A stretch of 53,998 nt of DNA from Escherichia phage vB_EcoM_DE15. Below are positions 1-53,998 of this stretch, one piece after another. The position numbers and the translations under genes were made by a program. Location of the stretch: the sequence record NC_079184.1; one strand, written 5' to 3'. The notes beneath the pieces were generated by a model. That model did no database searches and was not told the origin of the DNA. It saw only the letters and a program-made list of their open reading frames with translations. The first letter of the stretch is position 1; each line of letters begins with the position of its first letter.

Positions 1-92
1 CGATTATATGCGAGAAGAGATTCGATGCGTTAGCGTCGTTTCTCTTTGAGCTAGAATAAGACAAGTAAATTAAATATTTATTTATTCCCAAT

Positions 93-390
93 ATTGCTAC
101 AATATTAAGAGTAATATTAGGAATGCGTAAAGTTAAAACCAAATGGTACATGGTCGGTCAACTGTATCTCCTTCGGAGAAGGTACTTGGACCAATCTTCG
201 TTCACGGTCGGTCAGCTGTATCTCGCCGAAATTTGTTCGAACAGAAGTCCGACTATGAAATAATTTTTTTATAATTTTTTTTTTATTTTTCAATATTGCT
301 ACAGAATTAATGAGACTAGAATTCGTAACAAAGCTACGAGACTCGAATTGTTTCAATATTAACGAGACTCAATCTGTGACAATATTATAA
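93..390. repeat. Repeat-rich non-coding leader: direct repeats GGTCGGTCA(A/G)CTGTATCTC at 152-170 and 206-224; three GAGACT(A/C)(G/A)AAT copies at 312, 338, 364 with 26-nt spacing; poly-A/T tract 250-290; palindromic CAATATTG octamers
   Basis: Read directly from sequence; no + strand ORF in 1-651. Confidence 0.6.
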
Positions 391-567
391 TTTTATTTTT
401 GGGACGGCGAGGAGGGGAAGCCCAACGTCCTATCGGACTTAAAATACGGTCCCTACCCCAACTTTTTCCTACAGCCTATCGGCTTTCAAACAACACCAAG
501 TTAGGCGCTTCGCTTATGGGTCAAGGTCAAAGTCTCCGTGCTGTTGTAACAATGGCACAGGTTTGTG

Positions 568-588
568 ATATTAGTTGGACGTGAATTG
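568..588 (+). promoter_or_regulatory. Phage promoter-like motif (ATTAGTTGG core) upstream of the RNA polymerase gene
   Basis: Copy of the recurring 20-nt motif ACATTAGTTGGAT(A/T)TGAA; here ATATTAGTTGGACGTGAATTG. Confidence 0.4.
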
Positions 589-651
589 TGTAATGGCTAC
601 GCTATTATAATCCGTTTCAGTTAAATCATACACAATCTTGGAGACTTACAA

Positions 652-2592
652 ATGACTACTATCACCACTCAAACTATCAAATCCGTTGTTCCTGCTATCA
701 CTGCTCTGGTATACCGTGCCAAAGAGAAACAGAACTATATGCAGCCTCAGACTTGTGCTATTGCTGCCTTAGCCATCTTCAAGATGATGACGTCTTTCAC
801 TCGTGATGACGTTGTCCCTGCCATCGCGATGGTTGAACTGGCTTCTGCTTCTATTGCTGATGCCAACCGTTATAACAACGATTTGAAAGCAATGCACTAT
901 GTTGACCCAGCTATCAACCTCATTGGTCTGGCTAAGCACTTTGGCTTCATCACCATGAACGAAGACAAGTCATTCCAACAGACTGACACATGGGTTGAAC
1001 TGGTTACAACCAAAGACACCGCAGTGCCATTCACTGAGCGTGTTACATCTGAATCTCGTCGCAAGCCTTTCGTTAAAGGTGGCAAAGTTAAGCCATCCAA
1101 AACTCTGAAAGCTGCAATCGAATTCCTGCAAGATACTGAGTACCATGTGGAGACTGAGATGGTTCGCATCATCCAGTCCATGCTTGAGCAACGTACTTAT
1201 GGTGGCTTGCAGATGCCAGAAGCAATCCAGACTGAACTTCATGTTTGGAACAATGCTGTAGCAATGATGAATCAGGACACACTGTATTCTGACTACTTTG
1301 CTGACAACCGTGGTCGCCTGTATCATGTAGCATGTGCTGGTCCTAACCCACAATCTTCTGACTTTGCTCGTTGCTTGTATTCTCACAATGTTGAGAACAT
1401 CGTTAAGAAGTTTAACGAAGATGGTTCTACTACCATTGCATACAATATGTTCATGGCAGAACTGGAAGACATTTCCGGTGGTGAATGGTGCACTGCCAAG
1501 CGTTTGACTTATGTTGCTCAGAATCCAGCTGGTTCACTTGCTCGCATGATGAACATGCCTAAAGCTGAACGTCCTTCCAAGCCATTCACTTATGTTCGTC
1601 TGGCTCTGGATTGGTTCAAGTTTGAGACTACAGGTGAATGCGATTCTCGTGTAGGCTTTGGCTTAGATGCTAAATGTTCTGGTACTCAATATCTGGCATT
1701 CATTGCTGGCAATATGGAAATGGCTCGTGCAACAGGTCTGGTTGATTCTGAGACTAAAGCATCTGACCCATACCAGTTGAGTCTTCGTGAACTGTTGAAG
1801 CTGTTGGACAAGTCTTCAATGAAACCATCTCCTGAAATCATGGATGAATTCTTGAATCCGAAAGCTGGTCGTAAGTTTATCAAAACTCCGTACATGGCTA
1901 TTCAATATGGTGGTGGTAAAGCTGCACTAACTGGTTCATCTGACTTCATCAGCTACATGACGGAAGCTCTCCAGATTCCTATGGAGAAAGCTGAGGCATT
2001 TGCTGAACTGTGTGTAGAAGCAATCCATAACGCATTGGGTGCTAAGATTAACATGTTCATTGAGAAAGCTGCTGAGGCTGCATACAACCGTTGTGTTGAA
2101 CTCAACAAAGAGTACATCACATATCGTCACACTGATGGTCAGGTTGTAATGAAGCCTTGCTTCCCATCTCGTGAAATCTGTGAGGCATTCAGCATTCGTG
2201 TTGACAGCCAAACTCGTGTTATCTTTGGTCAGATTCAGGAGAATAAGCCTTGGACCATTCGTGAATCCAACCCAACTAAAGAAGAATTCAAGCGTACTTT
2301 CGTTGTTAACTACATTCAAGGTATTGACGCATTGGTTGCTCGTACTGTTGCAGTTAAAGCTAAAGAAGCTGGTCTTCGTGGTTTCACTTCAATCCACGAT
2401 TGTTTCCGTTGCTGTTTGGCAGATGCTCCACGTATGATGGAAGTTATTCGTGCAGCATATGTTGAAATCTTTGTAACCAACAATCAATTCGAGAATCTGT
2501 CTAAGCAACTTGGTGGCATTCAGATGTATCATGAGAACATCGTAACTGAAGAACTCCTGATGTCTGAACACGCTTACTACTTCTGTCAATAA
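652..2592 (+). CDS. Single-subunit (T7-type) DNA-dependent RNA polymerase, compact 646-aa form
   Basis: Motif A GLDAKCSGTQY (T7 DGSCSGIQH), motif B RKFIKTPYMAIQYGG (T7 RxxxKxxxxxxYG), motif C IHDCF (T7 HDSFG); only ~130 aa precede the palm region. Confidence 0.8.
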   Translation: MTTITTQTIKSVVPAITALVYRAKEKQNYMQPQTCAIAALAIFKMMTSFTRDDVVPAIAMVELASASIADANRYNNDLKAMHYVDPAINLIGLAKHFGFITMNEDKSFQQTDTWVELVTTKDTAVPFTERVTSESRRKPFVKGGKVKPSKTLKAAIEFLQDTEYHVETEMVRIIQSMLEQRTYGGLQMPEAIQTELHVWNNAVAMMNQDTLYSDYFADNRGRLYHVACAGPNPQSSDFARCLYSHNVENIVKKFNEDGSTTIAYNMFMAELEDISGGEWCTAKRLTYVAQNPAGSLARMMNMPKAERPSKPFTYVRLALDWFKFETTGECDSRVGFGLDAKCSGTQYLAFIAGNMEMARATGLVDSETKASDPYQLSLRELLKLLDKSSMKPSPEIMDEFLNPKAGRKFIKTPYMAIQYGGGKAALTGSSDFISYMTEALQIPMEKAEAFAELCVEAIHNALGAKINMFIEKAAEAAYNRCVELNKEYITYRHTDGQVVMKPCFPSREICEAFSIRVDSQTRVIFGQIQENKPWTIRESNPTKEEFKRTFVVNYIQGIDALVARTVAVKAKEAGLRGFTSIHDCFRCCLADAPRMMEVIRAAYVEIFVTNNQFENLSKQLGGIQMYHENIVTEELLMSEHAYYFCQ

Positions 2593-2600
2593 GAGAAACA

Positions 2601-2630
2601 GGGCTGGCAATAGCTGGCCCTATTCTTGTT
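2601..2630 (+). terminator. Hairpin (8-bp stem incl. 2 GU, AATA loop) followed by T-rich run after the RNAP gene
   Basis: GGGCTGGC-AATA-GCTGGCCC then TATTCTTGTT. Confidence 0.4.
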
Positions 2631-2693
2631 CATCAACAACTAAATCCCAATATTCAAGCAATATTGCTGCATGTAATATTGCTCCGATATTCG

Positions 2694-2714
2694 ACATTAG
2701 TTGGATATGAAGTA
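2694..2714 (+). promoter_or_regulatory. Phage promoter-like motif ACATTAGTTGGATATGAAG
   Basis: Member of recurring 20-nt motif family. Confidence 0.4.
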
Positions 2715-3670
2715 AAAGAATACGGAGAAATATTCCGCATGTCATGTTGAATCATTCTAGAAACATTCAGCATGTCAGCTTTGAGTTACAGCGTTGTAAT
2801 GATGTGGCAATCATTGAACTCCCTGGGAAGGCCACCTATAGTTCCAGCAACCATGACTTAGAGTAGGAATATCTATCCGAAACTTGGACTTCATTGTAGT
2901 TTGGTGTGCTTCATCGTGAGAAAGGTTGTGATAACTTTCGTAAGCAGGTGTTGAACTAACAACAGAACATCGTGTTAGCCATCTTGATTAAGTTACAAGA
3001 AAGTCAACAAATCAGCATGTCTATTAGTAACAATCTTGTTCCTTCTCCTATTATCAAGGCCCACCCACAAGCCGGGAGATAACTTTGACAAGACTGGAAC
3101 TTTTGGACATGCTTCTTTCTTTCTACAAGAATTCGAAAGAAGAGAAGAGTCGGAGCAAAGCCGCGAAACTAATCCCGTAGCCCGCCCCCGATTTTGAGCA
3201 ACAAATATTGTGACAATTGCGTCGCAGTATGGCATGTAAATATTGCTACAAATTGGCATGTTGGAATGTGGCAGAATTGTTAGAGGACTAATCACCTCGA
3301 AGATACAATCGTCTACCAATCTGGCATGTTAATTTTGTAACAGTATTTGTGCCAATTTCGCATGTAATAGTTGTATCAGTATTGACCCAATATTCTTGCA
3401 ACCCGCATGAATACTGGCTTCCAGCCAAGCGAAGGCTTTATCATCGCATGTAATATTGTGACAATATTGGGATAAAACCCTTTATTTAAATCATTTAGTT
3501 TATTAATTAAATGGTCGGTTTTCTGTACATAGGTATTCAACTGTTTGTGCCAAATACAAACAAGTTGGCTGCTTCTACAGAACTCCAGTGCTACAAATGT
3601 TCGTGCCAATCTGCTGCAATTTATCTCATTTGGCGGGGTAATATTGTATTAGGTTGGTACGTCATTATTT

Positions 3671-3692
3671 CGATTAGTTGCATGTGAATAAG
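3671..3692 (+). promoter_or_regulatory. Phage promoter-like motif variant GATTAGTTGCATGTGAATAAG
   Basis: Member of recurring motif family, one core substitution. Confidence 0.3.
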
Positions 3693-3964
3693 ACCAAATC
3701 TCTGTAAATTCTGTGACAGATTTTAGAGAGATTATGTCTCCAAGCTAATCATTGTAGTTCTTCGGCACTTAATGTGTCACATATATAGCCTGTGAAAAAC
3801 GTGTGGTTTATTGCTGGATTGCAACGCGCCCACCAGACTAGGGAGTCCGTGATGGCGGCACACAGGAATACTATATAACTCCCTACAACTTTAAGGTGGA
3901 TTGAGGTAAGACAAGACCTCCACAATCGTTCTGTAGGGAGTTTTCTTTAACTTGGGAGAATAAA

Positions 3965-4213
3965 ATGGATACTGTGACTAAAGCTGCTTACTTTAAAGAC
4001 TTGTCAGATGGTCAAATATTTTCTATTCGCTCTGTAAAGTGGATTAAAGTAAATGAATCAGACAAGTACAATGCTGTAAAGTTCTTTGATTCAAGCAAGG
4101 CATGTACTTTTAGTGACAATATTGTTGTAAATATTGAAGTCGAATTAGAGCCAGATGATTCAAATGATGAAATCATTCTGCGTAAAACTGTTGGATACAC
4201 TAAAGGATTCTGA
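3965..4213 (+). CDS. Hypothetical early protein (82 aa)
   Basis: ORF with GGGAG RBS upstream of ATG. Confidence 0.5.
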   Translation: MDTVTKAAYFKDLSDGQIFSIRSVKWIKVNESDKYNAVKFFDSSKACTFSDNIVVNIEVELEPDDSNDEIILRKTVGYTKGF

Positions 4214-4214
4214 A

Positions 4215-4445
4215 ATGGATTATGCACTGTATCACTATATAAGCAGGACTGGGCTTGTTCGTCACGCTTTGGTCAACATTAAAACCAAAGACATACTGTT
4301 GGCTGGCTTGTCAATTTACGAAAACAATTTAGTATGGAAACGTGCTGTACATCCTGGACATGTTTGGGATGTAATTCAGTCTGACAAATACCACAAAATT
4401 GTTGCAATGGCTAACCGACCAGAGCACATCAAGCCGAGGAAATAA
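4215..4445 (+). CDS. Hypothetical early protein (76 aa; ORF track gives 4155 start)
   Basis: ATG at 4215 directly after upstream stop; tight gene packing. Confidence 0.4.
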   Translation: MDYALYHYISRTGLVRHALVNIKTKDILLAGLSIYENNLVWKRAVHPGHVWDVIQSDKYHKIVAMANRPEHIKPRK

Positions 4446-4447
4446 TC

Positions 4448-4636
4448 ATGGACTTCATCGTCTACTTTAAGTTAAATGGTGTAGAGCAAAGTTTGTACTT
4501 CAATTCTTTACTTCGTTTGCAACAGTGGGCGGAGAAGTTTGTTGGTTACGACTTTGATTACATCAATGCATGTACAACTGACGAACATGAGGAAATCGTG
4601 TTCAGTTCTTTAAATCAAATTCTGGAGGCCAAGTGA
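4448..4636 (+). CDS. Hypothetical early protein (62 aa)
   Basis: ORF, ATG start, packed with neighbours. Confidence 0.45.
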   Translation: MDFIVYFKLNGVEQSLYFNSLLRLQQWAEKFVGYDFDYINACTTDEHEEIVFSSLNQILEAK

Positions 4637-4824
4637 AGAGCAAGATTCTTAAGTCAGCAATGTATAATCTGCATTTCGGACTCAGCTACCCTACAGTAAA
4701 GCGTCAAGAGAAACGATTTTCACGACTACCTGCACGGACTGTTGCCAAAGAGGTTAAGAAGGCGAGCGAGATTCTAAAGTTCGTTATGTGGAAACGTGTT
4801 GTATTAACTCCGGAGACCAAATGA
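4633..4824 (+). CDS. Hypothetical early protein (63 aa, GTG start)
   Basis: ORF in track; start uncertain. Confidence 0.35.
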   Translation: MKSKILKSAMYNLHFGLSYPTVKRQEKRFSRLPARTVAKEVKKASEILKFVMWKRVVLTPETK

Positions 4825-5087
4825 GCCAGTTTAAGTTAAAAGCAGATTTAATCGAGTTGGCCTCTTATGAAGAGAAAATCGAATTCATCCAAGAACGTTT
4901 GGTTGTCAACTACGGTGGTTGGATTGATGTTTCTACAAATGAGTTGGTGGTTCGTATCAAGGAAGAGTTTGGTATTGAAATCACTAACAAACAGTTTTAT
5001 GAAGATGTTCTCACAGATAAAGTTATTCGAGGCATCACAAACAATTTCATGTCCAGCTTTATGGAAGGTGGGCCACGTTTAAAATGA
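4821..5087 (+). CDS. Hypothetical early protein (88 aa; ORF track gives 4788 start)
   Basis: ATG 4821 in frame of ORF 4788..5087. Confidence 0.4.
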   Translation: MSQFKLKADLIELASYEEKIEFIQERLVVNYGGWIDVSTNELVVRIKEEFGIEITNKQFYEDVLTDKVIRGITNNFMSSFMEGGPRLK

Positions 5088-5248
5088 AGAAGCTCAAATA
5101 TATGACCAAAACGGTTACATATATGGCTATGTATGGTGCTTCAAAGCGTAAGGCTAAGAAATTGGCAAGAGCTGCAAATCCTCGTATGCCAGCACGTAAA
5201 GTGGCCAAAATCGTTAATCTGGTATTTGGCAATTGGAGTATTAAGTGA
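5084..5248 (+). CDS. Small basic protein (54 aa)
   Basis: ATGA overlap with upstream stop; translation MKKLKYMTKTVTYMAMYGASKRKAKKLARAANPRMPARKVAKIVNLVFGNWSIK. Confidence 0.3.
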   Translation: MKKLKYMTKTVTYMAMYGASKRKAKKLARAANPRMPARKVAKIVNLVFGNWSIK

Positions 5249-5427
5249 ATTATGAGAATCTGCTATTAAGAACTAGTGGTGGGATGCTCATACTGACCAC
5301 ACCTGAGTTTCATTTCACAAGGGTATACTCCGAAGAATTTAAATCCTGGTTCCCAGCAAATCTAAAAACACGATGGCTTAAAGATTGTGTGCCTGTTGGG
5401 AAGAATGTAAAGCTAAGGAGTAAATAA
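5245..5427 (+). CDS. Hypothetical protein (60 aa, GTG start)
   Basis: ORF in track only. Confidence 0.25.
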   Translation: MNYENLLLRTSGGMLILTTPEFHFTRVYSEEFKSWFPANLKTRWLKDCVPVGKNVKLRSK

Positions 5428-5600
5428 TGAACGACCAGCAATTCAACACATTCATGCAGCAAATTAATCATCAAGAACTGATGGATGCCATTAAAGGCAA
5501 GAAGCCAGTCGAACGTCAATATCGTAAAATTGATAATTATATGCCAACAATCATTGCATGTGTTGGTGTTGCTATTGTTCTCTACTTCCTGGTGAAATAA
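5427..5600 (+). CDS. Small protein with C-terminal transmembrane segment (57 aa)
   Basis: AAGGAG RBS 5415-5420; hydrophobic C-terminus TIIACVGVAIVLYFLV. Confidence 0.4.
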   Translation: MNDQQFNTFMQQINHQELMDAIKGKKPVERQYRKIDNYMPTIIACVGVAIVLYFLVK

Positions 5601-5686
5601 TGTCGATTGCTAAGAAACTGTTATTCTGTATCGTAATGTTCCCTATGGTGCTGCTCGTTGTGGGCAGCTTCATGTACTTAAACTAA
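5600..5686 (+). CDS. Very small membrane peptide (28 aa)
   Basis: TAATG overlap; MSIAKKLLFCIVMFPMVLLVVGSFMYLN. Confidence 0.3.
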   Translation: MSIAKKLLFCIVMFPMVLLVVGSFMYLN

Positions 5687-5695
5687 GGTAATTAA

Positions 5696-6004
5696 ATGGC
5701 TTCTTTACTCGAATTCTCAAATATTGCAAATGTTGCTAAGAATTCTATTCCGGAAAATCCGGACGTAATTGCGTACATGCGTGTTGATGTAAGTTTGTTA
5801 GCTTTTGTAATGGACCACATCAACCTTGTTGAAGCGCAGTTATCTCAGTCTTACGAAACAGTTGACACTCTTCGTGGACTTCGTACAGCAGAGCAACAGG
5901 CTTATGCTGACCTCATGGAGCAAAAGAACAAGCTCCAAGAACAACTGGCAGACGCACTTCAACAAATTGAAGACATGAAGCCACCAGCAGAATCAACCAA
6001 ATAA
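5696..6004 (+). CDS. Hypothetical protein with coiled-coil C-terminus (102 aa)
   Basis: ORF with RBS. Confidence 0.5.
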   Translation: MASLLEFSNIANVAKNSIPENPDVIAYMRVDVSLLAFVMDHINLVEAQLSQSYETVDTLRGLRTAEQQAYADLMEQKNKLQEQLADALQQIEDMKPPAESTK

Positions 6005-6022
6005 TCAAACTTAGGAGTTGTT

Positions 6023-6283
6023 ATGGCTACCAAAACAGGCATGATGATTGTCCCAAGCCGTAATAACTCTTTAAGCGGCTTTACACCATATAAAATCTAC
6101 GAAGTGATTTCTGGCACTGGTGAAGCAAACCTGTCAGAAGTTGCTTTGAAGTTGGGCCGTATGGTCCACTCCGAAATCTCCTGTAACGTAGTTGATGATG
6201 AAGGTAAAATCCGTTTTGTAACAATGGATTTCTTTCGTGAATTTAACCTCAAATCTGAATTAGGAGTCCTGTATCATGAATGA
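6023..6283 (+). CDS. Hypothetical protein (86 aa)
   Basis: ORF with GGAG RBS. Confidence 0.5.
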   Translation: MATKTGMMIVPSRNNSLSGFTPYKIYEVISGTGEANLSEVALKLGRMVHSEISCNVVDDEGKIRFVTMDFFREFNLKSELGVLYHE

Positions 6284-6464
6284 GGATGATGATGATGTTG
6301 TTTGCCCGAAGTGTGGCAGCAATAACGTAGACCATGTAGCACACGAAGCAGTGGGAATGTATGGTCCCGTAGTTCTGGACAGTGCATTCTGTGTAGATTG
6401 TGGTTTAAACATTTATCATGGAAAACTTATAGACAATAGTGGGAATATCCCGCCAAAAGGATAA
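6276..6464 (+). CDS. Small zinc-ribbon protein (CPKCG...CVDCG)
   Basis: Two CxxC pairs. Confidence 0.45.
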   Translation: MNEDDDDVVCPKCGSNNVDHVAHEAVGMYGPVVLDSAFCVDCGLNIYHGKLIDNSGNIPPKG

Positions 6465-6466
6465 TC

Positions 6467-6694
6467 ATGAAATTTAAATGTGTTGCTTCAACCAAAGATT
6501 ATGTTCCAGTTGGCTTCATCGTTGAAGGTGAAGCTATCTCACCTTTGGAATTTAAAGTGACCAAATCGGCTGAGAGTGTTTCTCCAGCATTTCGTAAAGG
6601 TGCTGTAGTGCCTATGAATGGTACATTCTGGACATGGCAGCGCGACCATGAAGCAGAATTTGCAGACATTTGTGAACAAGGTTTATTGCAATGA
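6467..6694 (+). CDS. Hypothetical protein, paralog A (75 aa)
   Basis: N-terminus MKFKCVASTK..., shares KFKCV.ST and W.W pattern with next gene. Confidence 0.5.
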   Translation: MKFKCVASTKDYVPVGFIVEGEAISPLEFKVTKSAESVSPAFRKGAVVPMNGTFWTWQRDHEAEFADICEQGLLQ

Positions 6695-6921
6695 CAAAGT
6701 TTAAATGTGTGAAATCAACCTCTTCATCTGAACATACTCCGAAAGTTGGGGATGTGATTGAGGGAGAACTTATCCACATACAGAGAAGACACGGAACAGA
6801 CACTCGAATAGTTATTTCGAATGTTGGAAACCGAATGGCTGCAAACGGAAGGCCATATTGGAACATTGGTGAAAAGGTTCCGCTAAAAGGTAGTGTCTGG
6901 TCCTGGGAAGAAGTTAAATAA
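6691..6921 (+). CDS. Hypothetical protein, paralog B (76 aa)
   Basis: N-terminus MTKFKCVKST...; tandem duplicate of previous gene. Confidence 0.5.
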   Translation: MTKFKCVKSTSSSEHTPKVGDVIEGELIHIQRRHGTDTRIVISNVGNRMAANGRPYWNIGEKVPLKGSVWSWEEVK

Positions 6922-6984
6922 TTTCCTCAACCACTTTTGTAATGAGAGTGGTTGCTGAATATTATTAATTAACTTGGAGCATTT

Positions 6985-7275
6985 ATGAAACAACGTACTC
7001 GTTTACAACGTGACCCAGCCACAGGTCGCATGTTGCCAGCATACTTGAAAGTTGGTGACTTGGTTTACACTCGCGACTTTGCTTTTGACATTTGCCCAAG
7101 CAAAGCATATGAAGTTCTTGCCACCAGCTTGTCTGGTCCTAAAGTAATATTTGGTGCACTTGAGCCAATCCAGTTAACCGGAACTCAGTTTGTCATTAAA
7201 GACGAATCTGGTTGCAACCGAATCTTCAATCTTGAAGGAGGTTTATCCAAATGGGAGAAGGTGAAGCGTGGGTAA
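6985..7275 (+). CDS. Hypothetical protein (96 aa)
   Basis: ORF with RBS. Confidence 0.5.
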   Translation: MKQRTRLQRDPATGRMLPAYLKVGDLVYTRDFAFDICPSKAYEVLATSLSGPKVIFGALEPIQLTGTQFVIKDESGCNRIFNLEGGLSKWEKVKRG

Positions 7276-7501
7276 GAATTATATCGAAATGTTTAAGCGA
7301 TTGTCTGTAAATGGGCAGGAGTTCTTGTTAAACGATGCAAGACAAGATATTGAATTGTCTGACAAGTATTCTTATTTTGCCCAAAAGACAATTGTGAAGT
7401 GGACATTCTCTTACATGTCCGCCAGTATTCCAGGAGAAACGCTCGTAATTAGCGGTTCTGGAGATTCAGTTTTAGCAGCTTTGGAGAAACTAAAGCAATG
7501 A
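7268..7501 (+). CDS. Hypothetical protein (77 aa)
   Basis: ORF. Confidence 0.4.
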   Translation: MGKNYIEMFKRLSVNGQEFLLNDARQDIELSDKYSYFAQKTIVKWTFSYMSASIPGETLVISGSGDSVLAALEKLKQ

Positions 7502-7785
7502 ACAAGAATTCAATTTTGCGTTATGTTGGTAAAACAAACTACAACTTTACCAACGGTAAGAAATACAAAATCGTCGCAGGTCGTGGTGACGGGGTTCCTC
7601 GCAACAACGGTACACTCGGTGCGTATATTCAATCTCCTTTGGGTTTTGTCGTTAATGATGATAACAGCAATTTATGTTATCGTACATTCTCCGATAATTG
7701 GGAACTTGTGAAAGATTCTGGTGAAGTTAGTTGGTATAAACCTGAATCAACAATCGACCCAATTCCTATTTCAAAATCTATGTGA
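7498..7785 (+). CDS. Hypothetical protein (95 aa)
   Basis: ORF. Confidence 0.45.
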   Translation: MNKNSILRYVGKTNYNFTNGKKYKIVAGRGDGVPRNNGTLGAYIQSPLGFVVNDDNSNLCYRTFSDNWELVKDSGEVSWYKPESTIDPIPISKSM

Positions 7786-7826
7786 TTAACAATGGGCATC
7801 TTCTGTAGGTGTCCATGATTAATCCA

Positions 7827-7848
7827 ACATTAGTTGAATGTGAATAAC
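7827..7848 (+). promoter_or_regulatory. Phage promoter-like motif ACATTAGTTGAATGTGAATAAC
   Basis: Motif family member 18 nt upstream of next gene. Confidence 0.45.
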
Positions 7849-7865
7849 AACTACTGGAGCAGATT

Positions 7866-8306: not shown

Positions 8307-8342
8307 TTATCAGGGTGCATTTACGAGTGTACCCGAATAATC

Positions 8343-8363: not shown

Positions 8364-8432
8364 ACAAAGCTATTCCGTGGTTAGCAATGTCACTGAAACT
8401 TAAACTGTAATTAACTTAAGAGAATCTTAATC

Positions 8433-46262: not shown

Positions 46263-46633
46263 TGGCTGGAAATTTAGCTCTTGATTCAAACCACGACATT
46301 ATTATCGGTCGTGGAACAACTCGTATTTCAGGTGCTGCTCAAGTCGCTCAATTGGTTAAGTGCAGATTGCTGACAATCTTCGGAGAATGGAAGCTCGACA
46401 ATTCGTTGGGCTTGCCTTGGTTCGAAGCAATCTTCACAAAGCAAGTGCGTCCCTCGGATATTGAGGCGGCAATAGCCAACATTATTCGTGGAACTGCTGG
46501 TGTTCAGCAACTTATATCCATAGATATTGATGCAGACTACCGAGCAAGAAGCCTTGGAATCTCCTTTACTGCATTGTCTGATTATGGCAACATCACGGAA
46601 TTCTTAACATGGCAACAATCAAATACGGCGTAA
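46262..46633 (+). CDS. Baseplate wedge protein (GPW/gp25-like)
   Basis: ~120 aa, position before J-like gene. Confidence 0.45.
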   Translation: MAGNLALDSNHDIIIGRGTTRISGAAQVAQLVKCRLLTIFGEWKLDNSLGLPWFEAIFTKQVRPSDIEAAIANIIRGTAGVQQLISIDIDADYRARSLGISFTALSDYGNITEFLTWQQSNTA

Positions 46634-47766
46634 CAGAGAACGGTTTTGTTCGCAAGCCTGTGGCCGACGTTGTATCAAGTCTTAATAACAAATTCATTGC
46701 TGCATTTGGTTCCAACTTTGATATAAGTCCGGAATCTCCTGACGGGCAATATATTGGAATTATGGCCGATGAAATCGCCTCGTGCTGGGAACAGGCTGAA
46801 CAAGTATTTAACGCATTCCGTCCAGGTGCTGTATCAGGCATTGGACTAGACAACGTTTGCGAATTAACAAATACTGTTCGATATGTTGACAAGCCTTCTC
46901 AAGCAACTGTCTTGTGCGATGGTGATATGGGAACTACTGTTCCTGCTGGTTCTATCGTAACGGATGGCACCATGCGCTTTATTCTCGACACAGATGTAAC
47001 ACTTCCAGGTGACGTAACTGTTATTGCAGAAGAGCCTGGTGAGTATTATATTGCACCGAGAACAATCAACCAAATCGTAACTCCTGTTGCCGGATGGAAT
47101 TCTGTAATTAACGAAACAGTTGGCGAGACTGGTATTAACTATGAATCAGACCCACAACTCCGAGCACGTCGAGAAAAGACTACGGCAGTCAGCAGCACAG
47201 CCACAGTCGAAGCCATCTATGCTTCACTCGCTGACCTCGATATTGATTACATTCGTGTTCGTGATAATGATACCGGCTCTCCTATTGGCAATCAGCCTTC
47301 GGGCACTGTATTTGTTGTAGTTGATGGCGGTACGAGTAATGATATTGCACGTCGAATCTACAATGCCAAAACTGGCGGAGTTCCGACATATGGCGATATC
47401 ACAATTACTGTAGCAGACTCGAAAGGCTACCCACACGATATTCATTTCAGCCGACCAACTTACACCGACATTTATGTCAAAGGTACGTTCCGTCGTCGTG
47501 CAAATGCCAACATAAGTTCGAACGATGCTATTCGTCAGCTTACAGATGCAACCATTGAATATCTCAACTCCCTGCAACCAGGGCAGAGTGTGGTATGGTC
47601 CAACATGTTTGCTCCTATCATGGCTGCAACACAGTATCTTGAGATTGATTCACTGTTTATTGGTATTGCACCAAACCCAACTGGCATAGCAACGATAGAA
47701 TTGGATATCGACAAACGTGCTCGTGGGGTTGCTGCTAACATAACTTACACTGATGTGACGGTATAA
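46609..47766 (+). CDS. Baseplate J-like protein
   Basis: 385 aa, position in P2/Mu-like order. Confidence 0.5.
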   Translation: MATIKYGVTENGFVRKPVADVVSSLNNKFIAAFGSNFDISPESPDGQYIGIMADEIASCWEQAEQVFNAFRPGAVSGIGLDNVCELTNTVRYVDKPSQATVLCDGDMGTTVPAGSIVTDGTMRFILDTDVTLPGDVTVIAEEPGEYYIAPRTINQIVTPVAGWNSVINETVGETGINYESDPQLRARREKTTAVSSTATVEAIYASLADLDIDYIRVRDNDTGSPIGNQPSGTVFVVVDGGTSNDIARRIYNAKTGGVPTYGDITITVADSKGYPHDIHFSRPTYTDIYVKGTFRRRANANISSNDAIRQLTDATIEYLNSLQPGQSVVWSNMFAPIMAATQYLEIDSLFIGIAPNPTGIATIELDIDKRARGVAANITYTDVTV

Positions 47767-47767
47767 T

Positions 47768-48409
47768 ATGGCTGGTAAACATGGCTTAGATATGCTGCTT
47801 TCACAGTATGCACTGTCGCCAAACCTTCGTAAGTATATTTCAATCTTCTTAGAAGAGTTTGCAGAAGTTAAACAGGCCATGACTGACTCAGTTAAGTACA
47901 GATACTTAGCAGATTCGTTCGGAGTCATGGTTGACGACCTTGCGTATATTGTGGGAGCTTCTCGTGTAATACAAGGTGCTGCGGCACTTGGGTATTTTGG
48001 CTTCTACGCCAACCCAGGTGCATTTCCTGCTGGTGATGACAACGACCCAGGTATTGGTGGTATTCTGAAATCAGATTACGACAAAGACTCTGGAGACTTT
48101 GTTCGAACAGATGGTCAGTTAAAGGATGCAATACGTGCCAGAATCATTAAGATAACTGGCAACTGCACCATTGAACAGCTTATCATGTATATCGAGTTGG
48201 TCGTAGGAAGGGAACTGAAACTCCAAATCGTAGAGGGGTTTCAGACAATGGACTACATTATTCATGAAGAGTTGTCTGTGGCCGAGAAAGTTCTCATGGC
48301 CTACATGCTCCCGAACTTTAAGCCTGTTGGAGTTAAGATTACCCTAAGAGATACTAAAGGTAACATCGCTCTGGTTTATGGTTCCAAAGATTATCCTCCG
48401 GAGAAATAA
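47768..48409 (+). CDS. Baseplate gpI-like protein
   Basis: Position. Confidence 0.4.
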   Translation: MAGKHGLDMLLSQYALSPNLRKYISIFLEEFAEVKQAMTDSVKYRYLADSFGVMVDDLAYIVGASRVIQGAAALGYFGFYANPGAFPAGDDNDPGIGGILKSDYDKDSGDFVRTDGQLKDAIRARIIKITGNCTIEQLIMYIELVVGRELKLQIVEGFQTMDYIIHEELSVAEKVLMAYMLPNFKPVGVKITLRDTKGNIALVYGSKDYPPEK

Positions 48410-49554
48410 TGACTCAACGTCTTAAGTTTAATTTTCCCTGGGCGCAAGATGGTGAAGTTAAAGACCCGGACTTGGATACCACTGCGCCAAGTTTTATCGA
48501 AAACAGGTACGCCAATCTGGGCTGGGAAGCTGAAAAGCCTCCCAATGAGTGGCAGAACTTCTTATCCCAAATTAGTGATTTGAAGATTATATCTCTGCTG
48601 TTCAGTGGCATTGCTGAGTTTGATTCAAGTGTGACTTATCAAGTTGGTGCAGTATCTTCTCTCAATGGTGTTGTTCGTGTATACACACCCACAGGTTGGG
48701 AAGAGGTGATGGACCTCAAGAGGGTCGACTACCTTAATGACGTCAGTAACTTGAAGTCCCTCTACGATAATCACTTGGCTGCAACCAATCCACATAAAGA
48801 AACTGTGGATACCATTACAGATAAAACTTATAGCAAAACTGATATAGATGATGCCTTTGGAAGCCCTACAGACCCAAGGACCATCGTGTATCATAAGCTA
48901 CAAACTGGCCGCGTACACCAAGAAACTCCACAACAGCTTGGAACACTTCCAACATCTGGTGGCAAGTTTTCCGGACCTGTGTCACTGTTGGGTGGTATGA
49001 AGTTTGGAACAAACATCACAATTCAAATGAACCCAGGAAATGGGAGAATTGAGATGCGAGCAGGTAATAGGATTCTATCCATTGATGCACTTGGCAATGT
49101 TCTGTGGAGCATAGTTGGTGGTGCAGAATATCCAGTGATGACAGAGCTGAATTACTCAGAATTTCAGATTCGCTGGGGAAACAGGTTTGCACTCCCTACA
49201 CCATATTTGCAAATGGACTTTGCGAGAAGCATTAATGATGGTTCATCTGTTCGTGACTGGACAATCACAACCACAGAAACACCAGTGTTTCACCCTAGCG
49301 GTGGGTTGAAGATAGATGACAACACTGTCACGTTTTCAGGATTTAATATCACTATTCCGACAACCATAGTTGCACTCACCAGAAACTCTGCTGGCGCACT
49401 TGGGAGGGGCAACTCAGATGCTCCATCTGGAGGATATACGAGCCTAAACACCCTGCTTACAAACTTGGGTGTATCAGATGCTGCATACATTGTCAGTATT
49501 ACTTGTTACCCAACACTTACCGCTTATCAGAAATCAATGTTAGTGAGGCCATAA
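48409..49554 (+). CDS. Tail fiber protein (proximal)
   Basis: Position; fiber-like composition. Confidence 0.45.
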   Translation: MTQRLKFNFPWAQDGEVKDPDLDTTAPSFIENRYANLGWEAEKPPNEWQNFLSQISDLKIISLLFSGIAEFDSSVTYQVGAVSSLNGVVRVYTPTGWEEVMDLKRVDYLNDVSNLKSLYDNHLAATNPHKETVDTITDKTYSKTDIDDAFGSPTDPRTIVYHKLQTGRVHQETPQQLGTLPTSGGKFSGPVSLLGGMKFGTNITIQMNPGNGRIEMRAGNRILSIDALGNVLWSIVGGAEYPVMTELNYSEFQIRWGNRFALPTPYLQMDFARSINDGSSVRDWTITTTETPVFHPSGGLKIDDNTVTFSGFNITIPTTIVALTRNSAGALGRGNSDAPSGGYTSLNTLLTNLGVSDAAYIVSITCYPTLTAYQKSMLVRP

Positions 49555-50939
49555 TGGCAATTCGTCCTAAACTGAACCGAGTCTGGACTTCAAACAACTC
49601 TGTCGCAAGACGTGACCCAGGGGATGAAAAATACCTCAAGGGTTGGGTTGCGGAGATTCCGACCTATCAGGTTCTTAACTACCTGCAATACAAGATTGAC
49701 ACCACAATGCTTGCACAAGCAGAGCGTGGAATCTTTGAGTGGGGAAATGATGTAAGTTATGGCGTTGGTAGTTTGGCTTGGGACGAAACAGACAAGACTA
49801 TCTATGTTTGTACTGTCACCAACCCTAACAAAACACTACGCCCAAGTGCAAACTCTGCACAGTGGAGTCCAAGCTCCATCCAAGTTCCTCGTGCAAATTA
49901 TGACTCAATTGTGGCAGCAATCAATGCACACATTGCAGACATAACCTCAAACCCGCACAAAGTAACTGCTGCACAAATTGGTGCATACAACAAGTCCGAA
50001 CTTGATTCGATTGTTGCCAACTATCGTGCAATGGTACAGGCACACGTAACGGACTACAACAACCCGCACCAACTTACTGCAACTCAGGTTGGTGCTGTTC
50101 CTGTAACTGGTGGCGCATATACTGGTGAAGTAACTTTCACAACTGTGTATCTGAATGATTCCAAAACTGCACAGATTGTAAATGACGGTGGATTGTATCT
50201 TCGTAATGGAAGCTACTACCTTGGAGTCAATGGAACCACAGGAAATCCAGAGGCAGGCACTGCTTCAAGTAAGTCGCGTATTGTAACGGAACTAAACTTC
50301 CCAGATGTTAAGGCAGCACAAGAGCCTGGGTATGCTCACCTGGAACCAACATTCCAAATGAACTTTATAAACTCACTTAACATAGTGAGGGGTTCTGGAA
50401 CAGTGTCTTCTACAGAAGGCATGGATATTCGATACGACCAAGCTAATGGTGGTGTGTTCCTGTTTGACCAGGGTGGCATTGGACATTCGATAAGCGGTAG
50501 CGACGAACTTGTAGCAACTGGTGAAAACGTGCCATTTACGATTGCATTTGACTACTACCCAAACAATCCGATAGATTCTACATCTTGGCAGTTTACCATA
50601 GGACTACTTGGGTATAAGGTACTGTTCCGAGTAAACAACAACATGTACTTGGAGATTAGAAACTCTTCTGGCTCCAATGTGCAGAGATGCGCCAACCCCT
50701 ACGTTGTAGCTCCATATACATGGAGCAGGATTGTCGCAACATACGACGGAACTACATATCGTCTATATGTAAATGGCGTACAGATTGCTGAAGAGGCTGG
50801 TGGGTTTGCAACACATAACAACTCTGCCAGTCGCAAATTCATGTTGAACCTTGCAGCAAATGTTCAGAAGGCTGTTAGATTCCGTGGATTTAGGCTCTGG
50901 CCTTACTCGCTTAATGCCAAGCAAATTTCAACTTTATAG
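49554..50939 (+). CDS. Tail fiber protein with NPH-type repeats and C-terminal concanavalin A-like lectin domain
   Basis: NPHKVTAAQIGAY / NPHQLTATQVGAV repeats; C-terminal YRLYVNGV-type jelly-roll pattern; ATG 49554 with GAGG RBS. Confidence 0.5.
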   Translation: MAIRPKLNRVWTSNNSVARRDPGDEKYLKGWVAEIPTYQVLNYLQYKIDTTMLAQAERGIFEWGNDVSYGVGSLAWDETDKTIYVCTVTNPNKTLRPSANSAQWSPSSIQVPRANYDSIVAAINAHIADITSNPHKVTAAQIGAYNKSELDSIVANYRAMVQAHVTDYNNPHQLTATQVGAVPVTGGAYTGEVTFTTVYLNDSKTAQIVNDGGLYLRNGSYYLGVNGTTGNPEAGTASSKSRIVTELNFPDVKAAQEPGYAHLEPTFQMNFINSLNIVRGSGTVSSTEGMDIRYDQANGGVFLFDQGGIGHSISGSDELVATGENVPFTIAFDYYPNNPIDSTSWQFTIGLLGYKVLFRVNNNMYLEIRNSSGSNVQRCANPYVVAPYTWSRIVATYDGTTYRLYVNGVQIAEEAGGFATHNNSASRKFMLNLAANVQKAVRFRGFRLWPYSLNAKQISTL

Positions 50940-50947
50940 GATTCAAA

Positions 50948-51976
50948 ATGGCTAAAGGTTATTCTTTAGATGCGTTGGTTAAGGAGAAGTGGTCGAGATA
51001 TGCCGAATCCTTAACCAGTGGGTTGGACTTTAATGACTTCTACGGTGTGGAAAAGTCCGGCATATACATGGTTGCTGCCAATAATATAGCCACTACACTG
51101 CTAAACATGCCAGAAAAGGTTGCTGGTGTACTCGAGGTAATGCCCTGGACATCAACGGGGCTAAGCATCCAAAGGTACACTACATACAACCTTGCCAGAC
51201 TATATGTTCGCACAAAGGAGTCCCCAAATGTGGACTGGGGTCCGTGGAAGCTTCAGATAGACGCATCAAACATATTTAATACCATATACCCAATTGGTAT
51301 TGTATTGCAGTTTGATAACGCCACCAACCCAAACAATTCATTCCCAGGCACAGTTTGGGAACAAATCCTAGACGGTCGCTCTGCTCGTTCTGCAACTTCT
51401 GCTGAAGCTGGTACAACTGCTGGTCAAATTGGTTCCACTGGTGGCTCTGATACCGCATCTCTTGCTGTGGCAAACATTCCTGGACACACTCACGGAATGC
51501 AAAACCACACGCACAGTATTGCAGCACACACCCACACGATGGCCCACACCCACTCCATCAACCACGACCACGGTGCCGTGACGTCAAGTTCCAGTGGTGC
51601 ACATACACACAGTGTGTCCGGTACTGCCGCAAGCAACGGTGCTCACACGCACACAGCCGGAACTGGTTACACTGGTGCAGGTAACTACATTGGTGCAGGT
51701 ACTGGGACTGGCCTGGGTACGATGACCACTAACTCTGCTGGTGCGCACACACACAGTGTAAGCGGAACTGCTGCGTCTGCTGGTGCACACACCCACTCTG
51801 TAGACTTACCTAACTACACAGGTACAAGTGGTGGCTCCAGTGCTGCCAATACGGGCGGTACGGCGTTAACCACTGGTGGGCCAAGCAACAATGAAACAAC
51901 CTCAACCGGAAGCGGCACAGCCTTCACTGTGACCAACGCCGTTCACTACTATGCCTTCTGGAAACGGGTGGCTTAA
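50948..51976 (+). CDS. Tail fiber / receptor-binding protein with His-x-His repeats
   Basis: GHTHGMQNHTHSIAAHTHTMAHTHS and three GAHTHSVSGTAAS-like units. Confidence 0.55.
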   Translation: MAKGYSLDALVKEKWSRYAESLTSGLDFNDFYGVEKSGIYMVAANNIATTLLNMPEKVAGVLEVMPWTSTGLSIQRYTTYNLARLYVRTKESPNVDWGPWKLQIDASNIFNTIYPIGIVLQFDNATNPNNSFPGTVWEQILDGRSARSATSAEAGTTAGQIGSTGGSDTASLAVANIPGHTHGMQNHTHSIAAHTHTMAHTHSINHDHGAVTSSSSGAHTHSVSGTAASNGAHTHTAGTGYTGAGNYIGAGTGTGLGTMTTNSAGAHTHSVSGTAASAGAHTHSVDLPNYTGTSGGSSAANTGGTALTTGGPSNNETTSTGSGTAFTVTNAVHYYAFWKRVA

Positions 51977-51984
51977 GGAAAACA

Positions 51985-52326
51985 ATGGAACGATTATCCA
52001 TTCAGATGTTTCTGGACCTCATGCACCAATATGGCGTATGGCACGGCTTGCTCGCTGGTCTGACGGCTTTAATCCGTGGGGCATATGAGAGTGAGGGTTT
52101 AAGCAAGGCGTTGCTAGATGCGACGCTGTGCAGCTTAATCGGCCTGTTTGCATTTCAGGTCGCTGGCACATTTGAGACTTTCACGACTAACGTCACTATG
52201 CAGTTAGTTTTGGCTATCGTGATTGGTGTCATCGGTGCTAACCTCATTATCACAACTGTCAGAGAAAGTTTCTCTGGCGCAATCAAACAACTTAATCCTT
52301 TGACGTGGTTCAAGAAGGCACGATGA
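51985..52326 (+). CDS. Holin (putative, 3 TM segments)
   Basis: Three hydrophobic stretches in 113 aa; directly upstream of lysin. Confidence 0.5.
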   Translation: MERLSIQMFLDLMHQYGVWHGLLAGLTALIRGAYESEGLSKALLDATLCSLIGLFAFQVAGTFETFTTNVTMQLVLAIVIGVIGANLIITTVRESFSGAIKQLNPLTWFKKAR

Positions 52327-52343
52327 AATGATAAGGAACTCGG

Positions 52344-52898
52344 ATGCTATCATTCAAAGTTCTTGCACTTCTGACAGCTTTAGTTCACATCAACGCCCCA
52401 GCTTCGGTTGGGGCAGTGAATTCTGCTATTACAGATTTTGCAAGTCATTCCTATTTAAATGGAAGTCTGAAATTATCTTCTTCACAACGCAAAGAGCTAG
52501 AATGCTACACTAAAGTAATCTGGTACGAAGCTCGCGGAGAAGACAAACATGGAAAGATTCTGGTAGCTAATGTCGTCCGTAATAGAACAGAGTTCGGGAA
52601 GCCATTCGCTAACACCGTTTGTAATGTTGTCTATCAACGCAATCAATTTGCATGGACACGAGAAGCAAAGAAGAAGAATGCTCAATGGAAGCATGTAGCA
52701 AAGATTAATTATGCCACAGAACAACAACAAGTTCTGGACACCATTAATGTTGCAATCTCTTTTGTACTATTTAATCAACCCTCTGTCACCAAAGCAACTC
52801 ACTTTTGTACAGCATCGGAGAAGTGCAACTTCAAGAATGTCAAAGGTCTGGGACGTTATGGTGGCCATAAATTCTATGAGTATCTAGGAAATCTGTAA
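52344..52898 (+). CDS. SleB-type cell wall hydrolase with N-terminal signal/SAR-like segment (endolysin candidate)
   Basis: [21 protein letters not shown] matches the SleB/Hydrolase_2 core; N-terminal [25 protein letters not shown]. Confidence 0.65.
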
Positions 52899-53998
52899 TG
52901 GCTTACACTACCTTTTCACAAACCAAGAATAACCAACTATTAGAACCAATGTTCTTTGGTCAGAACGTTAACGTTGCTCGATATGACCAACAGAAGTACA
53001 GCGTCTTCGAGAAGTTAATCGAGAAGCAGTTATCTTTCTTTTGGCGACCTGAAGAGGTTGATGTTAGCCAGGACCGAATTGACTATGCTGGTCTGCCTGA
53101 ATGCGAGAAGCACATCTTTACCAGCAATTTACGATACCAAATCCTGCTTGATTCCATTCAGGGACGTGGACCAACCACAGTTTTGCTGCCAATTGTGAGC
53201 ATTCCTGAACTGGAAACTTGGATTGAAACTTGGTCTTTCTCAGAGACAATTCACTCCCGTTCTTACACGCATATTATTCGTAATATCGTGACAGACCCAA
53301 GTGTAATTTTCGATGAAATTGTGGAGAATGAGCACATTAAAATGCGTGCAATCGGCATCTCCCAATATTATGACGAGCTTCAACATCTAACTTCCATGTG
53401 GCATCTGCATGAAGATAAAGTTTCCCTTCGTGAGCTTAAGAAGAAGCTGTATTTATGCCTCATGTCCATCAATGCACTAGAAGCAATCCGCTTTTATGTC
53501 AGCTTTGCTTGCTCATTTGCCTTCGCTGAACGCAAGTTGATGGAAGGAAATGCCAAGATTATTCGCTTAATTGCTCGTGATGAAGCACTCCATTTGACCG
53601 GAACTCAACACATGCTGAACCTTCTTGCAAGTGGTGTTGATGACCCAGAAATGGCAGAAATTGCTAAAGAATGCCGTCAAGAATGCCAACTCATGTTCGA
53701 AAATGTGGCCCAACAAGAGAAAGATTGGGCTGATTATTTGTTCAAAGATGGCTCAATGATTGGCTTAAATAAGCAAATTCTGTGCGGATATGTGGAATAT
53801 ATCACGAATATTCGTATGCAAGCAGTTGGATTGGATGCTCCATTCAAAGGTGCTACTAACCCGATTCCTTGGATTAACGCATGGTTGAATTCGGATGCTG
53901 TACAGGTTGCTCCACAAGAAACGGAGATTAGTTCGTACCTTGTCGGGCAGATTGATTCCGAAGTTGACACCAATGCTCTGGGCGGATTTGAGCTTTAA
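52898..53998 (+). CDS. nrdB: Class Ia ribonucleotide reductase beta subunit (NrdB), host-like
   Basis: [11 protein letters not shown]...[18 protein letters not shown]...[18 protein letters not shown] strongly resembles enterobacterial NrdB as recalled. Confidence 0.85.

Follow-up and report, generated by a model that had tools for sequence, protein, structure and literature searches.

Contractile-tail genes and a T7-style polymerase and replisome in Escherichia phage vB_EcoM_DE15: the known architecture of the Chaseviridae, with candidate structured RNAs and a predicted tape-measure nuclease

The genome record of Escherichia phage vB_EcoM_DE15 (NC_079184.1) comprises 53,998 bp, the whole of which was analysed and is referred to here as the window. 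On one coding strand it combines a T7-type RNA polymerase and T7-like replication genes with the genes of a contractile-tailed virion. An earlier note, made from the letters alone, had described this combination as a rare mosaic, which raises the question whether the window represents a new kind of phage, a recombination event, an artefact of assembly or an architecture that has been seen before. We find that the combination of a myovirus virion with a T7-style polymerase and replisome is the defining trait of the family Chaseviridae as recognised by the international virus taxonomy committee (ICTV) and is already known. The window is almost certainly the complete or near-complete genome of a virulent Escherichia coli phage of the genus Carltongylesvirus, with the terminal repeat collapsed to one copy.

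Gene calls were checked by profile searches against Pfam, PHROG and solved structures, independently of the annotation of the relatives (Table 1). Every component that the earlier note had named, i.e. T7-type RNA polymerase, primase-helicase, family A DNA polymerase, 5'-3' exonuclease, terminase, sheath, tube, tape measure and baseplate, was borne out by these searches, and the sheath call was upheld by PHROG, by Pfam and by solved sheaths, that of Pam3 among them. The single coding strand is equally real. Plus strand open reading frames (ORFs) of at least 60 amino acids cover 89% of the window, and the only long ORF of the minus strand (363 amino acids) lies antisense to the capsid gene. Stop-start junctions of the ATGA/TAATG type number 22 on the plus and 5 on the minus strand (ORFs of at least 50 amino acids), with real neighbouring genes joined at about 14 of the 22.

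Megablast of the window in three parts against 50,697 phage records (August 2025 collection) revealed common DNA in 79 of them; the combination is indeed rare. The top relatives SA91KD, ST32, Bp7/Bp10, JL1 and EcoM1 show 94-96% identity over 85-99% of each query. Compared with SA91KD (NC_079183), identity is 95.2% for bases 1-25000 (90% covered) and 96.1% for bases 25001-50000 (97% covered). Compared with the type phage phiEcoM-GJ1 (NC_010106, GJ1 in the following), it is 91-92% at the nucleotide level over 83-93% of the window. Together with the taxonomy lines of the relatives (Chaseviridae; Cleopatravirinae; Carltongylesvirus), this confirms the supposed likeness to the phiEcoM-GJ1 group. 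The alignments are colinear. The window starts at the same base as the records of SA91KD and GJ1, and the stop codon of nrdB, which is the last gene in those two as well, closes it. Gene order, start point and strand are the same in SA91KD, in which the promoter-like 18-mers described below stand at equivalent positions, and the architecture of GJ1 is identical to that of the window. With 53,998 bp and a G+C content of 44.05% the window falls inside the range of the Chaseviridae, whose genomes are linear double-stranded DNA of 52-56 kb with 39.3-52.5% G+C (ICTV 2022 profile). Members of this family have their own DNA polymerase and helicase/primase, and genes for both are found in the window. 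A member of the Autographiviridae would join a single-subunit RNA polymerase to a podovirus virion, whereas the window carries sheath, tube and baseplate genes. Transcription and replication of the isolate would work like those of T7-like phages, yet it is no member of the Autographiviridae.

Chaseviruses have myovirus morphology (ICTV profile) and the relatives are myoviruses by electron microscopy. Precisely such a hybrid of myovirus structure and Autographiviridae-type RNA polymerase is described in the ICTV profile and again in a 2026 paper that deals with a further Carltongylesvirus; this paper speaks of 'hybrid features' and counts 17 genomes in the genus. Since the database comparison found near-identity to well-described phages and the architecture defines the family, what the earlier note had flagged is correct and is not new. 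The title of the 2008 phiEcoM-GJ1 paper by Jamalludeen states this very architecture, and the group has been known for it in print ever since.

Intergenomic similarity to the complete SA91KD genome is 89.9% (VIRIDIC-style calculation). The usual ICTV genus line lies at about 70% nucleotide similarity. The species line is 95% (ICTV profile), and the isolate therefore falls within the genus and outside the species of the nearest record searched. As far as sequence can tell, it is probably a separate species within Carltongylesvirus, at most. Two records among the relatives deserve mention. PP952070.1, named 'Staphylococcus phage Pel53' with Staphylococcus hyicus as host, is 86-88% identical to the window over most of its length, and its host label looks doubtful. 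The name 'vB_EcoP_Bp7' is of podovirus style, yet this phage has the same sheath and tube genes.

The combination is odd a priori, and G+C climbs slightly along the window from about 0.40 to about 0.46. These two points are all that speaks for an assembly chimera of a T7-like podovirus contig (left ~28 kb) and a myovirus contig (right ~26 kb). Over 20 phages that were sequenced independently and come from several continents, SA91KD, ST32, Bp7, GJ1 and Mangalitsa among them, are nevertheless colinear with the window across the supposed junction, which refutes such a chimera. Moreover, the promoter motif occurs in both halves (568-14581 and 43079) and the size of the window fits the family. We consider this explanation next to impossible.

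A recent recombinant, in which a chasevirus backbone has taken up whole modules from other families to form a new kind of hybrid, would leave segments particular to the isolate, and there are such segments. Four stretches are absent at the DNA level from both SA91KD and GJ1: a Macro-domain ORF, an HNH endonuclease gene, an 81-amino-acid ORF and a 68-amino-acid ORF of the T7 gp5.9 RecBCD-inhibitor family, the last being replaced by different sequence in both phages. Three of the isolate-specific segments map to 16734-17187 (HNH), 22798-23029 and 27354-27716. The Macro-domain ORF lies directly downstream of a promoter motif of the ACATTAGTTGGATGTGAA type and is found among chaseviruses in TH37 only (96% amino acid identity); next come Kuravirus (SU10-like) podophages with about 81%. 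Because its kin outside TH37 are in these podophages, this gene of an ADP-ribose-binding/hydrolase family looks like a horizontally exchanged accessory gene, possibly one of counter-defence. Identity of the sheath ranges from 65% to 97% within the genus, and the tail-fibre region at 50.3-51.9 kb diverges from SA91KD. The exchanged pieces, however, are single accessory genes of 0.2-0.5 kb, all core modules are at least 90% identical to other Carltongylesvirus genomes with their order kept, and no core gene (polymerase, terminase, sheath, capsid) was found with its nearest relative outside the Chaseviridae. A recent hybrid of whole modules is accordingly very improbable, and the isolate-specific segments are ordinary accessory-gene exchanges. 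HNH endonucleases that adjoin the helicase, polymerase and terminase genes of GJ1 are absent from the window, and GJ1 in turn has no counterpart of the tandem Ig-like ORF that the window carries between its cement and capsid genes.

At depth the mosaic is real. Outside the family, the kin of the polymerase are phages with single-subunit polymerases, while those of the sheath are all myoviruses (Felixounavirus, Pakpunavirus and similar groups). At least five genera share the combination as a fixed trait, and the architecture is therefore old and stable; the mosaic is ancient in the family and did not arise by a recent recombination in vB_EcoM_DE15.

The RNA polymerase was well recognised by Pfam and PHROG, its match to phrog_414 spanning profile positions 154-816 with the first ~150 positions missing. 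Amino acid identity is 99.7% to the enzyme of Bp7 and 91.7% to gp01 of GJ1. The nearest enzymes outside the chaseviruses, those of Xp10-like siphoviruses, of Caulobacter and Stenotrophomonas phages and of some Autographiviridae, are 21-25% identical. The enzyme had been called podovirus-type. Membership of the T7 family stands, but the podovirus label is loose, since the enzyme is only a remote member of that family and some of its kin, such as Xp10, are siphoviruses. The window shares with Autographiviridae the Pfam RNA_pol polymerase, fused primase-helicase, family A polymerase, 5'-3' exonuclease, ligase and gp5.9-like ORF, as well as predicted direct terminal repeats, the use of one coding strand and a putative phage-specific promoter repeated along it. 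Unlike in Autographiviridae, its polymerase gene is predicted to lie inside the terminal repeat, and its virion genes, among them those for sheath, tube, tape measure and baseplate, are of the contractile-tail type. Chaseviruses have a terminal repeat of about 3 kb, which is far longer than that of T7. Chasevirus genomes are non-permuted with direct terminal repeats of about 3 kb (ICTV profile), and by blastn the PhageTerm-predicted repeat of Mangalitsa (positions 1-3234 of its record) maps to about 439-3147 of the window.

A promoter-like 18-mer, ACATTAGTTGGATGTGAA, was found ten times with up to three mismatches, on the plus strand only, against 0.07 matches expected. The sites correspond to 'putative phage promoters' annotated in GJ1 and SA91KD. 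The copy at 568-585 stands just upstream of the polymerase gene. Three copies flank a dip to 25-29% G+C at 12400-12550, an ORF-poor stretch, and by analogy one may speculate that this cluster with its AT-rich dip resembles the layout of the primary origin of T7. A sigma-70-like promoter is seen at 359-388, upstream of the polymerase gene, and is annotated at the same place in GJ1. Sigma-70-like matches are depleted in 1-18500 (27 versus 38.8 ± 6.2 in shuffles) and in 15000-19100 (0 versus 7.4 ± 2.4 in shuffles). The ~1.4 kb after the polymerase gene (2593-3964) is almost free of ORFs and spans the predicted right boundary of the repeat (~3147); it contains a block conserved at 95-98% (3201-3400). 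Rfam searches of 2590-3970 with E values up to 10 gave only noise.

The virion genes point in another direction than the polymerase. The earlier note had called the baseplate Mu/P2-like, which holds only for the V-W-J-I gene order and for PHROG names. At the level of sequence profiles, simple myoviruses of the Pam3/E217 type come nearest to the virion module, because the cement protein (Pfam 'E217 gp24/Pam3 gp6'), the Pam3 gp18-like plug and the sheath match those phages; tube and Dit-like protein are also shared. This likeness is one of sequence profiles only. We know of no Pam3/E217-type phage with a single-subunit RNA polymerase or a T7-like replisome. Virions of 4HA13, one of the relatives, contain the sheath, tube-initiator, baseplate and tape-measure proteins according to liquid chromatography-tandem mass spectrometry (LC-MS/MS).

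Some points weigh against the placement of the window as a complete genome of a contractile-tailed Carltongylesvirus with T7-style transcription. Genome-wide similarity to the records of the August 2025 phage collection nowhere exceeds 90%, so that the isolate is not identical to any described phage. Its contractile tail is deduced from genes and relatives. The polymerase has no sequence match to any solved structure (PDB search, E 1e-3), being too diverged from T7 for one, and its family membership rests on the Pfam and PHROG profiles. Neither a second copy of the terminal repeat nor any long end repeat is present within the window; the physical ends are therefore inferred only, and the boundaries of the repeat are set by homology. 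Finally, chasevirus promoters are regarded as not yet identified (ICTV profile), and the 18-mer therefore remains a prediction.

From the gene set and established T7 biology we infer the following life cycle. The left end would enter first, carrying the polymerase gene in a terminal repeat of ~2.7-3.2 kb, downstream of the sigma-70-like promoter. Host polymerase would express the phage polymerase, which would then transcribe the plus strand gene array rightwards from the ten 18-mer promoters. A T7-like replisome of primase-helicase, family A polymerase, single-stranded DNA-binding protein (SSB), 5'-3' exonuclease, ligase and endonuclease VII-like resolvase would copy the DNA, supported by ThyX, dUTPase, a dNMP kinase-like protein and NrdB. 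The large terminase would fill an HK97-fold head with unit genomes that bear direct terminal repeats. Sheath, tube, chaperone, a tape measure that includes the lytic transglycosylase and a simple baseplate of the V-W-J-I kind would give a Pam3/E217-like contractile tail, and lysis would fall to holin, endolysin and spanins.

Beyond the architecture, the window contains two conserved stretches without conserved ORFs, and one of them carries a candidate tag template. The region 15363-16100 has no conserved ORF, yet it is 95-99% identical among members of the genus. Its core is 82-86% identical in Erwinia chaseviruses and 71-80% identical in Ackermannviridae (Klebsiella phages Magnus and cp16, Escherichia phage PC3), where it lies in unannotated DNA. 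The element described below is kept across genera of the Chaseviridae and in Magnus and PC3. The core holds the frame GCA AAT GAT TCT GAA ATG CGA GTT GCG GCT TAA, i.e. ANDSEMRVAA*, which has no start codon and is preceded by AUAAAU. The tag that SsrA of E. coli adds is ANDENYALAA. As in a transfer-messenger RNA (tmRNA), the tag of the window opens on an alanine resume codon and closes with a degradation-type ...AA tail and a stop codon. A pattern scan of both strands of the window and of all fetched loci found the tag frame at the orthologous site only. All 15 loci have a tag of ten codons, with the variants ANDSEIRVAA, ANDSEMRVDA, ANDNEMRAAA, ANDDVVLMAA and ANDSEVLMAA. Between the window and 4HA13 the tag differs at four positions, all of them third-codon and synonymous, which argues that the frame is translated. 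A mini-ORF starting with AUG in the +1 frame over the tag (MQMILKCELRLN) was rejected, since in the alignment it is broken after 5 codons in the Ackermannviridae copies.

The tag is followed by a stop-codon hairpin, then by an H-type pseudoknot and lastly by a terminal hairpin. The two stems of the pseudoknot, S1 and S2, are 100% paired in nine sequences. S2 occurs as CCAA/UUGG, CCGA/UCGG, UCGA/UCGA and CCAG/CUGG, and three of its four pairs covary. Over the four helices tested there were 20 double-change cells, whereas shuffles gave 6.7 ± 2.1 and slid controls 0-5. An upstream pseudoknot, PK1, was not established in the element; its pseudoknot is the downstream one. The tmRNA models of Rfam stayed below threshold, with 20-27 bits against gathering scores of 47-50. 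In the window tmRNA_permuted reached E 0.17, and alpha_tmRNA scored 24.7 bits in Magnus (E 1.4e-4) and 22.6 bits in Y2 (E 6e-4) against a gathering score of 50. No tRNA-like domain (acceptor stem with G3:U70, T-arm, CCA) was found: ARAGORN gave nothing at default settings and only low-confidence or lineage-specific (Y2) tRNA-like candidates at 75% thresholds, and a scan of the window for a T-arm with complementary acceptor strands was empty. Because this domain was not found and Rfam scores are below the gathering scores, we call the element tmRNA-like and not a tmRNA. It may be a diverged or split tmRNA-like RNA that offers ANDSEMRVAA in place of the host tag, by means of which the phage could seize or redirect ribosome rescue and protein tagging in the infected cell.

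A single tRNA gene with a 23-nucleotide insertion in the D-loop follows. The best reading is tRNA-Arg(UCG), for which the Rfam alignment shows a normal anticodon loop (U33/A37); ARAGORN reads tRNA-Leu(CAG) with a poor D-stem, and 'tRNA-Arg, may contain an intron' stands at the same place in the GJ1 record. A heptamer from the acceptor stem of the window's tRNA, GGACGAG, is met again at 15687. GJ1 likewise has the tRNA with the D-loop insertion, the tmRNA-like tag and the structured RNA described next.

The second stretch is the 0.8 kb between the HNH gene and a 73-amino-acid ORF, upstream of thyX and the replication genes. It is 96-99% identical to GJ1, SA91KD and Mangalitsa, compared with 78-88% for thyX. 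An ORF-free gap of 0.8-1.2 kb is found at the same position in Sabourvirus, Suwonvirus, Loessnervirus, Faunusvirus and Myducvirus, and the structured RNA candidate at 17700-18079 is present in at least five genera of the Cleopatravirinae; a less conserved block (17280-17690) lies upstream of it. A coding role for 17190-18100 was rejected, as all six frames gave similar tblastn identity with frame hopping and no conserved ORF. Rfam on the same region yielded only noise (E up to 10). The fold energy of 17380-18100 as a whole is not significant (z -1.9 on the plus, -1.1 on the minus strand), so that support for a structure comes from covariation and not from energy. RNAalifold on nine sequences proposed 107 pairs, 16 of them with compensatory changes versus 3.0 ± 1.5 in shuffles. 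The structure including the pseudoknot was tested on an alignment of 13 sequences, which covers five genera along with two viral contigs from metagenomes: paired cells make up 94% versus 30-54% with slid partners, and 19 double-change pairs were counted versus 7.5 ± 1.8 in shuffles (0/500). In three further viral contigs, on which the structure had not been based, both stems of the pseudoknot are preserved by new sequences (stem 1 AUAG/CUAU, AUGG/CCAU and AAAG/CUUU; stem 2 GCCA/UGGC and GCAU/AUGC). Frequent G-U pairs place the structure on the plus strand. Invariant motifs of the alignment are UCUGGCAUA, UGAAAUAUGCAAG..AGGGUU and CCCAUA. A scan with a 19-base motif located the element on viral contigs of 52-57 kb only; two matches in bacterial genomes were discarded, as they lack the other conserved motifs and lie within chance expectation. 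Pairing would be possible between a CUCC tract and GGAG in the Shine-Dalgarno sequence of the ORF downstream (helix 5), which suggests translational control by this RNA.

Neither of the two elements matches an Rfam family at the curated threshold, and in the literature library searched no paper tied either of them, or any non-coding RNA or tmRNA, to the Chaseviridae. We put forward tentatively, and at somewhat less than even chance, that Cleopatravirinae and some Ackermannviridae encode their own trans-translation-type tag template, together with a second, undescribed structured RNA at 17700-18079 that would comprise the pseudoknot, the GNRA hairpin and long-range helices.

The protein at the tape-measure position contains a third unusual element. 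It follows the chaperone pair, as expected of a tape measure, has a lytic transglycosylase at its C-terminus and carries in between a domain of the lambda exonuclease/YqaJ type. In a query fragment of 225 amino acids, the catalytic residues D112, E122 and K124 are invariant compared with four standalone homologues, as are the Asp of SPDG, Glu-x-Lys, QGSxEW and Q146 in the alignment. An AlphaFold (AF2) model of the domain with a 5-row alignment reached a predicted local distance difference test (pLDDT) score of 72.8, compared with 40 for the single-sequence version, and matches LHK-Exo (3syy) and lambda exonuclease (1avq) by Foldseek with E 1e-10 and template modelling (TM) scores of 0.68-0.80. 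With the fold and the catalytic motif of lambda exonuclease/YqaJ PD-(D/E)XK nucleases in sequence and model, the domain is a predicted nuclease. Searched against a billion proteins, it returned four distant standalone nucleases and none of the chasevirus proteins. The fused nuclease-tape measure is found in about 80 Cleopatravirinae records and in that subfamily only; elsewhere the domain is a free RecE-like exonuclease. The homologue of 4HA13 is present in virions (LC-MS/MS). Possibly the nuclease domain resects the ~3 kb terminal repeats or attacks host DNA after ejection. The N-terminus (about residues 10-42) looks like a candidate SAP/HeH DNA-binding motif.

Table 1. Features of the vB_EcoM_DE15 window, with positions counted from its first base (aa, amino acids)
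Feature	Position	Strand	Basis or remark
Predicted direct terminal repeat, one copy, holds RNA polymerase gene	439-3147 (approx.)	+	Homology to Mangalitsa
Promoter-like 18-mer ACATTAGTTGGATGTGAA, ten copies	Starts 568, 2694, 3671, 7827, 8343, 12344, 12485, 12622, 14581, 43079	+	Motif scan
Single-subunit (T7-family) RNA polymerase, 646 aa	652-2592	+	Pfam RNA_pol E 1.2e-18; phrog_414 E 7e-98
Early/middle small genes	3965-12274	+	Profile matches and relatives' annotation
Macro-domain protein	7866-8306	+	
SSB	8433-8810	+	Name from relatives' annotation alone
M15 peptidase endolysin	11060-11476	+	
ArdA-like antirestriction protein	11485-12042	+	Weak match (E 0.006) and relatives' annotation
tmRNA-like element	15381-15578	+	Tag frame 15457-15489
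Pseudoknot stem S1	15508-15512/15523-15527	+	Downstream of tag
Pseudoknot stem S2	15517-15520/15537-15540	+	Downstream of tag
Terminal hairpin	15550-15556/15572-15578	+	
tRNA gene, 23-nucleotide D-loop insertion	16105-16196	+	Rfam tRNA 45.2 bits; single tRNA
HNH endonuclease	16711-17181	+	Absent from SA91KD and GJ1
Structured RNA candidate	17700-18079	+	Covariation; upstream of 73-aa ORF, thyX and replication genes
H-type pseudoknot	17701-17725	+	
GNRA hairpin	17746-17759	+	
Invariant motif	17870-17891	+	
Long 3' hairpin	17990-18079	+	
Nucleotide metabolism/replication module	18376-27495	+	Profiles and relatives' annotation
Primase-helicase	19031-20794	+	Toprim and DnaB_C/AAA_25
Family A DNA polymerase (DNA_pol_A)	20860-22794	+	Pfam
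81-aa ORF	22794-23039	+	Absent from SA91KD and GJ1
5'-3' exonuclease	23926-24987	+	N-terminal domain match
68-aa ORF, T7 gp5.9 RecBCD-inhibitor family	27515-27721	+	Pfam E 1.7e-9
Packaging/head module	28302-36777	+	Profiles
Large terminase	28302-30347	+	Nuclease domain match
Portal	30562-31878	+	
Tandem Ig-like protein	33415-33969	+	Between cement and major capsid genes
Major capsid protein, HK97-type	33992-35032	+	
Tail sheath	36778-38226	+	phrog_205 E 4e-102; Pfam DUF3383; Pam3 sheath 8hdr_M E 1e-17
Tail tube	38237-38692	+	Solved 'Tube protein' 9mt4_P E 9e-11
Tail assembly chaperone	38704-39162	+	Overlapping downstream frame extends to 39217
Tape-measure-position virion protein, 1241 aa	39322-43047	+	After chaperone pair
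Lambda-exonuclease/YqaJ-like domain	aa ~455-655 of ORF 39322-43047		Pfam YqaJ E 2e-13; LHK-Exo 3syy E 8e-7
C-terminal SLT lytic transglycosylase	aa 1061-1152 of ORF 39322-43047		Pfam SLT E 1e-12
Baseplate genes	43120-48409	+	Hub, Dit-like, plug, spike, W-like, J-like, DUF2612; V-W-J-I order
Baseplate and three tail-fibre genes	43120-51976	+	Profiles
Holin, cell-wall hydrolase endolysin, ribonucleotide reductase small subunit	51985-53998	+	Profiles; arrangement as in SA91KD
Ribonucleotide reductase small subunit (NrdB)	52898-53998	+	Last gene, ends at window end

The remaining genes complete this picture. Apart from the replisome genes, the nucleotide metabolism and replication module encodes ThyX, an endonuclease VII-like protein, an ATP-dependent DNA ligase, a dNMP kinase-like protein and dUTPase. 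NrdB stands alone, no gene for the large subunit being seen among the ORFs examined. The packaging and head module also holds a DUF2213 protease/scaffold-like protein, a cement protein, head-tail connectors and a tail terminator. Within it, a tandem duplication of 282 nucleotides (33399-33962, 77% identity) gives rise to the two domains of the Ig-like protein, probably a head decoration protein. The baseplate profiles include the Pam3 gp18-like plug, a spike N-terminal domain and W-like and J-like wedge subunits.

The architecture that had been flagged matters little in itself, as it rediscovers the defining trait of the Chaseviridae; its use lies solely in a correct taxonomic placement, and the window represents a virulent phage of the kind studied for biocontrol of E. 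coli. For a family with largely uncharacterised transcription signals and early biology, the tmRNA-like tag, the structured RNA candidate and the predicted tape-measure nuclease are concrete, testable leads. The conserved structured RNA candidate sits ahead of the nucleotide-metabolism and replication genes. The tag template, if true, would be carried by two unrelated phage families and would bear on how phages manipulate ribosome rescue.

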